Assembly (NCBI GenBank): GCA_963739455.1
Contig: CAVUAK010000003.1
Location: forward strand, 40,930-104,929
Direction: 5' to 3'
Length of the DNA: 64,000 nucleotides
DNA from: an uncultured Gemmatimonadales bacterium
GTDB lineage: Bacteria > Gemmatimonadota > Gemmatimonadetes > Gemmatimonadales > GWC2-71-9
The notes beneath the pieces were generated by a model, which did no database searches, was not told where the DNA came from, and worked only from the letters and a program-made list of their open reading frames with translations. Position 1 is the first letter of the stretch, and each line of letters opens with the position of its first letter. Below, piece by piece: positions 26,805 to 32,273 of this stretch. The position numbers and the translations under genes were made by a program.

Positions 26805-29800
26805 GGGCAACGGCGTCGAGGCGGCGGACCTGGTCCTCCAGGGGATCCCGGTCCTGACCTACCTGCCCACCGACGTGCGCGATCTCGTCGTCAGCAGCTT
26901 CGTGCCCGCCACCTTCGGCTTCGGCCAGGTCATGGTGAGGGAGGGCGATCCCGCCGACGCGCTCTACGTCCTGGTCTCCGGCCGCGCCCGGATGGTGAAG
27001 CGCGGCGACAACGGCGACGAGATCTCGCTCGGCACCCTGCGCCCCAGCGACACCTTCGGCGAGGCGGGGCTTCGTTGATCGCGGCGGTGCATCCCGCCAC
27101 GGTCCGCGCCAGCAGTGACGTCGAGGTGCTGCGGCTCGACCGCTCGGTGTTCGATGCCCTGCTGCGGCGCCGACCGGAGGTCCGCGAGTACTTCGAGCTG
27201 CAGGCCCGCCATCGTCACCTGCAGCACTTCTTCCGCCAGTTCAACGATCTTCGCCAAGCTGCCGCCCGAGGCACTGGCGCGAGCTCCTGGCGCGAGCTCG
27301 AGCCGGTCGAGGTCGGACAAGGGCGAGGTGATCTTCAGCGAGGGCGATCCCGCCGGGCCCCATGTACATCATCGAGGAGGGCCGCTGCCGGGTGCACATC
27401 GGCATCGGCGACCGCCGCCGCAACGTCGCCTTCATCTGCGCCGCGGCGAGTTCTTCGGCGAGCTCTCGGTGTTCAAGGGCGAGCCGCGCGAGGCCACCGT
27501 CGAGGCGGTGACGCCCTGCCGCCTGCTCCGGCTGACGCCGGAGAGCTACGCCGACCTGCTCGAGCGCTACCCCGACTTCCGGGAGGTCATCGAGGAGCGG
27601 GTCGAGCAGTACGACTTCCGGCACACCGCCCAGATCCCGATCGACTTCTTCCGCGAGATGCTGCCCGCCGACGCCAGCGTCAGGAGAAGGTGGCGACAAG
27701 CCAGATCGACCAGGACCTGACCCAGACTTGGTCGATTCCACCGGAACCGGGCGCGCCCGCGGCGCCCCGCCCCTCCGCCATCGCCGCCGCCCCGCCACGG
27801 CGACAGCGCCGTTCGCCGATGACCAGGGGCGATTCGTCAAGCGCGGCAAGCGGATCCGCCGCTTCCCCCATCTCTGGCAGATCGACGAGATGGACTGCGG
27901 CGCCACCAGCCTCGCCATCGTCTGCCGCTACTTCGGCAAGGCGATCAGCCTCGCGCGCATCCGGCAGCTGGTGCACACCGCGCTCGACGGCGCCAGCCTC
28001 AAGGCCATCTGCGAGGGCGCCAACGAGCTGGGACTCGCGGCCCGCGCGGTCAAGGCGTCGCCGGCCAGCCTCGACCAGATGCCGCTGCCCGGCGATCATC
28101 CACTGGGAAGGCAATCACTGGGTGGTGCTGTACGACGTGGACGCGGACCCACGTGAAGATGTCCGATCCCGGCGTCGGCAAGCGGCGGATCACGCGCGAG
28201 GAGCTTCGAGGCCAAGTGGAGCGGCTACGCGGCGCTCTTCGACTACACCGATCGCGTTCGACGCAGAACGCGGAGGCCCGGCCCGGCATCGCCTGGCTGC
28301 TTCCCGTTCTTCCGGCCCTACTGCACGGCTGCTGGCCAGGCGGCGGCGCTGGCGCTGATCGTGAGCGTGCTGCAGATGGTCGTCCCGGTCTTCACCCAGA
28401 TCATCGTCGACCGGGTCCTGGTCGAGCGGGACGTGCGCCTGCTCAACGTGCTCATCGTCGGCATGGGCGCGGTGATCGTCTTCACCCTGCGGCGCCACGC
28501 TGGTGCAGCGCTACCTGCTGAGCTGGGTCGGCGGTGCGCGTCGACTCCTCGACGCTCGACTTCCTGACGCGGCGGCTCCTCAGCCTGCCGATGAGCTACT
28601 TCAACACCCGGCGCACCGGCGACATCCAGCGCCGGCTCGCCGGCATGTGGCAGGTGCGCGAGTTCTTCGTGGAGCACGGCGTCGCGGCCCTCACCGCCGG
28701 GCCCAGCTGCTCGCCTCCCTCGCGCTGATGCTGGTGTACAGCCCGCTGCTCACCCTGGTGTTCCTCTCGACGGTGCCGCTGTTCATCCTCCTCATGCGCT
28801 ACGCCTCGGCGCGGCTCTTCCCGCTCTACGCCGAGCTCGAGGACGTCGCACGGGCAGTACCAGTCGTTCCAGATCGATGCCATCAAGGGCATCGAGACGG
28901 TCAAGGCGCTGGGCGCGGAGCACTCCTTCCGCGACCTGATGCTGCGGCCAGTTCAACGGCGTCGCGCGGAAGCGCTTCAAGGCCGACTTCACCCTGATGA
29001 GCTACAACGGCGTCATCTACAGCATCACCCTGCTCTCGGTGGTGCTCTTCCTGCTGGTGGGCGCCCACCAGGTGATGAACGGGGCAGATGTCGATCGGCG
29101 CCCTGGTGGCCTTCAACGCCCTGGTGGCGCTGGCCAACGCGCCGATCGTGACGCTCATGCACATCTGGGACAACCTGCAGCACGCCACCGTCTACCTCAA
29201 TCGGCTGGACGACATCTTCCAGCAGGAGCCGGAGCAGGGCAGCGATCGCTCGCGGCTGGTGCCGGTCAAGTCGCTCGAGGGCCGGATCAGCTTCCGGCAC
29301 ATGGGCTTCCGCTACGGCGGCCCCGAGTCGCCGCCGATCCTCGAGGACATCACCTTCGAGGTGCCGCCCAACACGATGGTGGCCATCGTCGGCCGCAGCG
29401 GCTCGGGCAAGACCACGCTGATCAAGTGCCTGGCCGGGCTGCTCGAGCCGACCGAGGGCACCATCCTCTACGACGGCATCGACCTCAAGACGCTCAACTA
29501 CCGCGACCTGCGCCGGAAGATCGGCTTCGTGCTGCAGGAGAATCACCTCTTCGACGACACCATCGCCCGCAACATCGCCTTCGGCGAGGAGGAGCCCGAC
29601 CTCGATCGCGTGATGTGGGCGGCCCAGGTGGCCAACGCCCGCGAGTTCATCGAGCGGCTGCCGCTGGGCTACGACACCCGGATCGGCGAGTCGGGGCTCG
29701 GCCTCTCCGGCGGGCAGCGCCAGCGCGTCGCCATCGCGCGCGCCGTCTACAACCGGCCCGCCGGTCCTCATCTTCGACGAGGCCACCAGCGCCCTCGACA

Positions 29801-30014
29801 CCGAGTCGGAGCGCGCGGTGAAGGAGAACATCGACCAGCTGCTCGAGGGCCGCACCGTCGTTCGTCATCGCCCACCGCCTGAGCACGGTGCGCGACGCCG
29901 ACGTGATCCTGGTGCTGGAGAAGGGCCGGCTGGTCGAGCAGGGCACGCCACGACGACCTGATGAAGCGGCAGGGCCTGTACTACTTCCTCGTCAGCCAGC
30001 AGCTGGGACTCTAG
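26791..30014 (+). pseudogene. bacteriocin-type ABC exporter with two N-terminal cyclic-nucleotide-binding domains and a C39 peptidase domain; heavily frameshifted
   Basis: About 10 ORF-track pieces tile one ~1070-aa protein. Domains in order: cNMP-1 (FGEAGL..HPATVRASSDVEVLRLDR); cNMP-2 (GEFFGELSVFKGEPREATVEAV); C39 (QIDEMDCGATSLAIVCRYFG, IIHWEGNHWVVLYDVD); TMD (LQMVVPVFTQIIVDRVL, YFNTRRTGDIQRRL); NBD ([41 protein letters not shown]). About 25 frame-switch sites between 27073 and 29948. Confidence 0.85.
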
Positions 30015-31258: not shown

Positions 31259-32273
31259 GCGACCTGGCCCACCCCGACGCCGAGCGCCACCCCGAGTGGC
31301 ACTACACGCTCGACGACTTCAAGAGCGCCGACGAGGTCGATGCAGACCTGCCTCGACCTGGCCCGGGTCGCGGCCACGCACCGACCTCCCCATCCTCATC
31401 CTGGGCGAGACCGGCACCGGCAAGACGATGCTGGCCCGCGCCATTCACAACTCCTCGCGCCGCGCCGCGGGCCGCCTTCATCGCCTTCAATTCCGCCGCG
31501 CTCTCAGCGACACCCTGCTCGACAGCCAGCTCTTCGGGCACGAGAAGGGCGCCTTCACCGGTGCGATGCGGCGGGTCAAGGGAAAGTTCGAGCAGGCCGA
31601 CGGCGGCACGCTCTTCATCGACGAAATCGCCGACATGAGCGCCACCGCCCAGGCCAAGATCCTGCGCGCGGTGGAGTACGGCGAGTTCGAGCGCCTGGGC
31701 AGCGAGTCAGCTGCGGACGGCGGACGTGCGGCTCATCTCGCGCCACCCACCTGCCGATCAACCGCTACCTCGAGACCGATCACTTCCGGAAGGATCTCTT
31801 CTACCGGATCAGCGGCATCACGCTCCGGCTGCCGTCACTCTGCGAGCGGCCCCAAGGACCTGCGCACGCTCATGGCCACCGAGATCGCCGCCGCCGCCGC
31901 GGCGCAGGGCAAGACCATCGTCGGCGTGAGCCGCGAGGCCGCCGATCAGCTCCTCCAGTACGGCTGGCCCGGCAACCTGCGCGAGCTCAAGCGCGTCATG
32001 CACACCGCCGTCGCCGTCACCGATGGCGAGATCATCGAGCCCGACGCTATCCTGCTGGAGACTTCAGTTGAGGAGGTCCGCGCCGAGGGTGCCGCTGCCC
32101 CCACCCCCGCGGCCAGCAGCAGTGCGCTCGACGAGGACCATCTCTCCCTCCGCGCCGCCGAGGCCAGGCACATCCATCAGGTGCTGGATCACTTCCGCGG
32201 CAACAAGCGTCGCAGCGCCAAGGCGCTCGGCCTCTCCCGCTCCACCCTGGATCGCAAGCTCTCCGAACACTGA
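31255..32273 (+). pseudogene. sigma-54-dependent transcriptional activator (AAA+ plus Fis-type HTH, no recognisable sensor domain); frameshifted
   Basis: LPILILGETGTGKTMLARAIH (Walker A), LFGHEKGAFTGA (GAFTGA), GTLFIDEIADM (Walker B), KILRAVEYGEFERLGSE, VRLISATH, FRKDLFYRISG, YGWPGNLRELKRV, C-terminal RRSAKALGLSRSTLDRKL. Seven frame-switch sites in 31339-31852. Only ~30 aa precede the AAA+ core. The start (GTG 31255) is inferred. Confidence 0.8.

Follow-up and report, generated by a model that had tools for sequence, protein, structure and literature searches.

The locus studied here raises the question of whether a bacterium has recently lost an export machinery or whether the genes concerned are intact in the cell and broken only in the assembled sequence. 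The window, a 64,000-nucleotide (nt) stretch of contig CAVUAK010000003.1 (assembly GCA_963739455.1) from an uncultured soil Gemmatimonadales bacterium, contains three adjoining genes for an ATP-binding cassette (ABC) exporter, an HlyD-family periplasmic adaptor and a sigma-54-dependent activator, and within 4.8 kb these are interrupted by some 55 frame disruptions. We show that these insertions and deletions (indels) are private to this assembly, lie at variable sites where they carry alternative natural alleles, scale with divergence and come without other damage. We consider it probable, at about 0.8, that the genes are intact in the cells and that the extra bases are long-read consensus errors arising from the collapse of diverged versions of the locus.

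In order to delimit the hot spot three independent methods were used, namely a codon-usage Viterbi path trained on the window's own long open reading frames (ORFs) and run over the whole window, a MAFFT alignment with relatives, and a pairwise alignment with L095, a short-read JGI contig that is 86% identical and has its ABC ORF open over 1099 codons. The Viterbi path confines dense frame switching to 27070-31841 with one long in-frame stretch at 29079-29751. Alignment of window positions 26701-32300 with ten intact orthologous loci gave 54 private frame-disrupting indels, comprising 40 single extra nucleotides (+1), nine +2 and five -1 events, the first at 27065 and the last at 31850, whereas realignment of 14 sequences gave 57 (46 +1, 6 +2 and 5 -1) and the pairwise comparison with L095 placed 41 +1, 7 +2 and 7 -1 events in the same places. 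A five-way alignment over 25764-35900 likewise returned 54 private indels of a length not divisible by three in the hot spot. The density across 27065..31850 (+) is ~11 per kb, mostly +1, an enrichment of 50-85 fold over the rest of the window (p < 1e-44). The initial annotation, made from the sequence alone, had described such a hot spot in the exporter, adaptor and activator, and all three methods recover it with 54-57 private indels; its count of 45 single extra nucleotides, the other 10 being +2 or -1, agrees with our 40-46, and its tally of 25, 23 and 7 sites in the ABC, HlyD and activator genes needs only small corrections to ~24, ~26 and 7. The sites it had given as examples (27361, 28091, 28149, 29081-84, 29760, 29948 and 31852) were recovered within a few bases, the exact base to be removed being ambiguous at some, and the boundaries also hold: 286 nt of the ABC gene precede the first event, and 421 nt separate the last from the activator stop. 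The background rate was corrected: instead of about one frameshift per 3 kb we counted 8-13 candidates in the other 59 kb, or about one per 5-7 kb (0.15-0.2 per kb).

According to the alignments with relatives, the events on the plus strand fall at the following approximate positions, with +2 and -1 events marked: 27065, 27086, 27250, 27278, 27289, 27314, 27350, 27434 (+2), 27683 (-1) and 27793 (+2); 28090, 28148, 28203, 28256 (+2), 28299, 28489, 28530, 28699 (-1), 28846 and 28946; 29080, 29756, 29857, 29945, 30082, 30089, 30208 (-1), 30248 (-1), 30290, 30300, 30328 and 30345; 30403, 30417, 30471, 30491, 30502, 30550 (+2), 30565, 30576, 30595 (+2), 30630 (-1), 30672, 30730, 30860 and 30893; and 31058, 31092 (+2), 31117, 31128, 31137, 31159, 31336, 31376, 31469, 31499 (+2), 31709, 31738 and 31850. 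The first read-through built from the multiple alignment left one shift in an unalignable linker at 27690-27830, which the closer contig L095 assigned to the +2 event at 27793. The clean stretch of ~675 nt noted in the initial annotation is present: no private indel lies in 29081..29754 (+), which lies in the ATPase domain and is the most conserved part of the locus, and a gap of this length has a chance of 0.013 under uniform placement of events. At 27265-27295 there is a near-perfect 11-nt direct repeat (GGCGCGAGCTC, 2 nt, GGCGCGAGCTC) that spans two of the +1 events, and the three +1 events at 27250, 27278 and 27289, within 40 nt of one another, locally restore the frame.

Removal of the private indels yields stop-free, full-length frames in which the C39 Cys/His residues, the Walker A/B, ABC signature and GAFTGA motifs are kept and profile matches run end to end, in agreement with the earlier statement that no in-frame nonsense changes are present. 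The frame arithmetic of the ABC gene closes as had been claimed, since the start at 26779 lies in frame 0 and the stop at 30012-30014 in frame 2, and the net difference of +20 from L095, in which one in-frame 3-nt gap is counted, equals 2 modulo 3. The ABC exporter gene (26779..30014, +), with ~24 events and a clean first 286 nt, encodes two cNMP-binding domains, a C39 peptidase, a transmembrane domain and an ATPase; its read-through matches cNMP_binding twice, Peptidase_C39 (2-129 of 133), ABC_membrane (6-271 of 274) and ABC_tran (1-137 of 137) in Pfam, all above the cut-offs. It also covers nearly the whole of the NCBIfam models TIGR01846 (3-693 of 694) and TIGR03796 (1-709 of 710), but at 550 bits against a curated cut-off of 726 and 538 bits against 853, respectively, so that the exporter is a relative and not a called member of TIGR03796 (NHLP exporter) or TIGR01846 (HlyB type). 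The HlyD-family periplasmic adaptor gene (30019..31258, +) has ~26 events and is the densest in events and the most divergent of the three; its read-through matches HlyD_3 and TIGR01843. The sigma-54-dependent activator gene (31255..32273, +) has 7 events and a clean last 421 nt, and encodes an AAA+ domain and a Fis-type helix-turn-helix (HTH) without a receiver domain (Sigma54_activat 4-167 of 168, AAA_lid_14 and HTH_8). It would start at a GTGA overlapping the HlyD stop, and the intact activator orthologue, of 329 aa, has a 4-nt overlap with its adaptor gene (2349-2352).

As the initial annotation had proposed, we compared the locus with that of its relatives, which place the window in the Gemmatimonadales, and the indels proved private to the window assembly. 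All 54-57 events are missing from the ten intact orthologues and from the short-read contig L095. In other metagenome-assembled genomes (MAGs) each of the three genes forms one uninterrupted ORF, of ~1060, ~405 and ~330 codons respectively, the adaptor orthologues being 404-410 codons long, and they are intact in seven long-read MAGs (L003, L004, L005, L010, L015, L019 and L026) as well as in six short-read MAGs (L012, L013, L016, L018, L021 and L024). Logan short-read contigs from unrelated soil and sediment runs, which are 89-95% identical over short pieces, have one or two bases fewer at ~18 event positions; the bases absent from the contigs of runs X1, X11, X12 and X13 are those at 27278, 27289, 27314, 27355, 27434, 28088, 28142, 28206, 28249, 28262, 28300, 28323, 28845/28848, 28944, 29086, 29856, 30082 and 31474. 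The closest loci found (L001, L095 and L003) are 85-86% identical over the locus, and no near-identical sister genome was found.

The identity of the extra bases was informative. Of the single-base insertions, 36/40 differ from a neighbouring window base and match an allele that relatives carry at that neighbour's column, against 36.5% under an analytic null (p 3e-12) and 43% (92/213) under a simulated null in which random bases were inserted into intact relatives that were then realigned (p 7e-10). Examples of this allele signature are TCAG, which combines TCG and CAG (31709), TCGC, which combines TCG and AGC (31738), and GCCA, which combines GCC and GCA (31376). Homopolymers are extended in 14/40 insertions, under the 47-52% null and thus with no enrichment, and all five -1 events (5/5) fall at columns that are variable among relatives. 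Within the hot spot the number of events per 300 nt follows the divergence among relatives (rho 0.65, p 0.006), and the event-free ATPase stretch has the lowest divergence of the locus, 0.14-0.20 as opposed to 0.26-0.35 elsewhere. At columns that are invariant in ten relatives the window differs at 1.0-1.4%, within the 0.2-4.2% of the intact relatives themselves, and neither mismatch noise nor relaxed constraint is seen. No 4-mer or 5-mer near the events was enriched after correction for multiple tests.

The initial annotation had preferred a consensus or assembly artefact, and the comparative evidence supports this and narrows it to strain heterogeneity. We propose that the 4.8-kb consensus was built from reads of at least two diverged forms of the locus, belonging either to co-existing strains with a divergent allele or to another closely related copy, and that these versions were collapsed into a single contig. 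No second copy came up when a paralogue of the locus was sought among the 80 top-ranking genome loci of the same MAGs, a search to which 64 kb of the source genome were visible. Wherever two versions differ at a site, the consensus caller would keep both alleles side by side, giving +1, and more rarely neither, giving -1. Under an error model in which an indel is cheaper than a mismatch, a consensus 'AB' would cost every read one cheap deletion whereas a consensus 'A' would cost half of the reads a mismatch, and 'AB' would win once the minor allele is frequent enough. No error would arise where the versions are identical, as in the flanks, or nearly so, as in the ATPase core, and the sharp edges would mark the points at which the versions become identical or the second version can no longer be aligned. 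Such a merged-variant consensus would therefore explain together why insertions prevail, why they bear the allele signature without added substitutions, why their number depends on divergence and why the edges are sharp; that the reads fall into two populations, and that the consensus algorithm behaves in this way, is what we infer from these features. Collapsed representations of similar strains have been described for metaFlye (bioRxiv 10.1101/2021.05.04.442591), with one contig standing for several close lineages and being a poor representative where they differ, and the assembly of related MFD MAGs used Flye, followed by one round of Medaka (PMC12313526). That literature, so far as it was searched, covers collapse and microdiversity and does not describe +1 insertions that keep both alleles. 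Frameshifted genes in long-read MAGs usually have a different cause: homopolymer indels in nanopore and PacBio consensus sequences give frameshifted and truncated gene calls in conserved genes that are removed by polishing (PMC9262707; PMC13087279). The frameshifts and truncated calls are alike, but here homopolymers are not enriched (14/40), a different base is inserted at variable sites, and the events are concentrated 50-85 fold in one locus.

A similar disturbance was found in other long-read assemblies. At the orthologous locus of L040, an MFD MAG (3300-9300), there are 15 Viterbi frame switches compared with 1 in the flanks (p 1e-4), and at that of L001 (7900-13300) 18 compared with 7 (p 1e-6). 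Both are of species different from that of the window, both have the same +1 bias, and the allele signature is found at 20/24 and 17/18 of the sites in L040 and L001, respectively. In L002, a fourth noisy assembly, there are 24 events and the signature is not significant (8/15). The event-free ATPase stretch holds 0, 1 and 1 events in L001, L002 and L040.

Several results weigh against the merged-variant interpretation. Searches of public runs with the hot spot and two clean flanks reached a best share of words of 0.05-0.14, so that the reads of the source genome were not found and two haplotypes were not seen; a second haplotype sought among relatives gave no clear donor, each relative having the inserted allele at 7-23 of 46 sites. 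The event-free stretch is cleaner than simple proportionality to divergence would give, with ~5 events expected by our estimate. A few event positions coincide with those of L001 or L040, for example 29945 (window and L001) and 27289, and these fit the merging of variants only if polymorphism at a given hypervariable site is shared by several populations. In a test for synonymous pairs 19/36 sites agreed, compared with single-substitution nulls of 25% (random) and 44% (allele seen in relatives), which is weakly supportive; this test and that of codon position carry little information, since the wobble base may be the neighbour on either side. We found no description of the both-alleles insertion signature in the literature searched, and the link to a particular algorithm is our own.

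Other origins of the extra bases were weighed against the same data. The 4.8 kb could be a low-coverage or unpolished segment, close to raw long-read sequence such as a bridging read with its random errors uncorrected, which was one cause named in the initial annotation. The anomaly is indeed local, sharp-edged and made of indels only, its density is near the error of modern raw long reads (~1%), and occasional frameshifts occur in the rest of the assembly too. Random errors, however, would not, at a rate of 90%, match alternative natural alleles at adjoining variable sites; they would be expected to bring mismatches at invariant sites and to prefer homopolymers, yet neither is in excess; and neither the tracking of divergence nor the sparing of 675 nt would follow from plain low-coverage noise, so that we regard this origin as unlikely. 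We hold a systematic, context-dependent basecalling or polishing error, for instance at a DNA-modification motif dense in the locus, to be less likely again; although the G+C of the locus is above that of its surroundings and a few events recur at the same position and in the same context in assemblies made independently (such as 29945, shared by the window and L001), the events show no enrichment of any short motif in their vicinity, the seven long-read MAGs of similar sequence are clean, most event positions in L001, L002 and L040 are unlike those of the window, and an allele signature is not predicted.

That the damage is real appears highly improbable. Real decay brings substitutions, stop codons and deletions that are placed regardless of polymorphism, and a genuine cluster of pseudogenes in a decaying genome would resemble this locus in having multiple frameshifts in neighbouring genes of one functional unit. 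A very recent inactivation that made true pseudogenes of the exporter, adaptor and activator while the peptide genes stayed intact, the alternative put forward in the initial annotation, is conceivable as a loss of export machinery with precursors retained. It would, however, require ~55 insertions with no excess of substitutions, stops or deletions, tied to polymorphic sites and copying the alternative alleles of neighbouring sites, in genes that read through without a stop over their full length; the lesions are found in no relative, at up to ~95% identity, and events of the same class are scattered in the housekeeping genes bioB and acrB of the window. We know of no mutational process that would leave such a pattern. 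The extra bases could also be real DNA produced by an unknown mutational process such as faulty heteroduplex repair after recombination between diverged alleles, in which the alternative allele would be inserted beside the resident one at ~55 sites and the three genes would be inactivated in one step with the peptide genes spared. We rate this as hardly credible, on a par with decay. Programmed frameshifting or phase variation, which would involve no more than a few shifts, placed at a slippery site or simple-sequence tract, was rejected since ~55 sites are affected here with no shared motif or repeat.

The remaining frameshifts of the window are isolated. In AcrB, a beta-lactamase-family gene, BioB, a PP2C phosphatase and an EamA transporter, consecutive Pfam coordinates continue in different frames. 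The sites are at 6360-6390, 7955-7965, 24700-24720, 45110-45120, 45520-45530, 51165-51195 and 63080-63090, with 2-3 in AcrB, 2 in the beta-lactamase/DUF3471 gene, and others in BioB, the EamA transporter and the PP2C phosphatase. The bioB site, for example, reads TCA+G, those of the beta-lactamase gene GGG+A and CAA+C and that of the PP2C gene GGG+C, the exact junction being ambiguous. They seem to be of one kind with the hot-spot events, a +1 right after a wobble base, with which the sequences are compatible, and the five genes are probably intact too. Together with a merged-variant origin of the hot spot, this suggests a population with low-level microdiversity throughout the genome and a locally very divergent island.

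The surroundings of the hot spot are clean. The flanks at 25822-27064, 33615-34483, 34484-34952 and 35138-35880 have no private indels of a length not divisible by three in the five-way alignment, and the flanking hypothetical gene and four peptide genes, described as untouched in the initial annotation, are so: the upstream gene (25824..26804, +; 326 aa) is intact with 0 private indels and forms the left clean flank, and the four small peptide genes are intact ORFs. The upstream gene is kept beside the exporter in the closest relatives and matches TIGR04500, 'putative peptide maturation system protein', only weakly, at 23 bits (E 3e-5) compared with a cut-off of 180. A tRNA-Lys(UUU) gene at 25563-25635 lies ~190 nt upstream of the first gene of the locus, and a second tRNA gene at 40762-40834 lies in a largely non-coding stretch of lower G+C (0.58), the G+C of the window being ~67%.

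The four tandem small ORFs, taken from the ORF list (32521-32634, 32961-33071, 33137-33235 and 33334-33486; span 32521..33486, +), encode 32-50 aa with a putative, K/R-rich leader ending in KGG and a very short, basic tail. Repeat families D1 and D3 occur among these genes, the first two of which share 91% identity over 95 nt, and in an orthologous JGI contig the activator is followed by 7 genes of this type. None of the four matched an NCBIfam model, and their role as precursors is putative, being suggested by the KGG endings. Promoter-like sites of sigma-54 type, CGGCACAGCGATTGC and GGGCACAGCGATTGC, lie at 32449-32463 and 32886-32900 in a duplicated 35-nt element, ~60-70 nt upstream of the first two peptide genes, and this arrangement would fit control by the adjoining sigma-54 activator. 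Matches to a loose sigma-54 pattern over the whole window were no commoner than chance.

The underlying locus, as distinct from the indel anomaly, resembles the double-glycine peptide exporters of the bacteriocin/NHLP type (TIGR03796, TIGR01846, TIGR03896), which share the C39 peptidase, the ABC exporter, the HlyD adaptor and tandem small peptides, here with putative leaders ending in GG; by Pfam on the read-through, the C39 peptidase, ABC membrane and ATPase domains are here in one protein with the HlyD adaptor adjoining. It differs from them in that the exporter has two N-terminal cNMP-binding domains, that a sigma-54 activator is present with sigma-54-like promoters ahead of the peptide genes, and that the putative cores after GG are very short and basic; the NCBIfam equivalog cut-offs are also missed.

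The hot spot is most likely not a real genomic feature, and annotation should take the three genes as intact and not record pseudogenes or a lost export function; counts of pseudogenes and frameshifts for the source genome are inflated by this locus. The observation that an extra base equals the alternative allele of the neighbouring site offers a read-free test that separates merged-variant consensus errors from read noise or decay and for which few relatives suffice; we found no description of such a test in the literature searched. For the organism, the data would point to a 4.8-kb island at which the sampled population has at least two well-diverged versions of the export machinery between nearly identical flanks. 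Two further Gemmatimonadales assemblies are affected at this locus, and the exporter-adaptor-activator block may therefore be unusually diverse within populations of the Gemmatimonadales.

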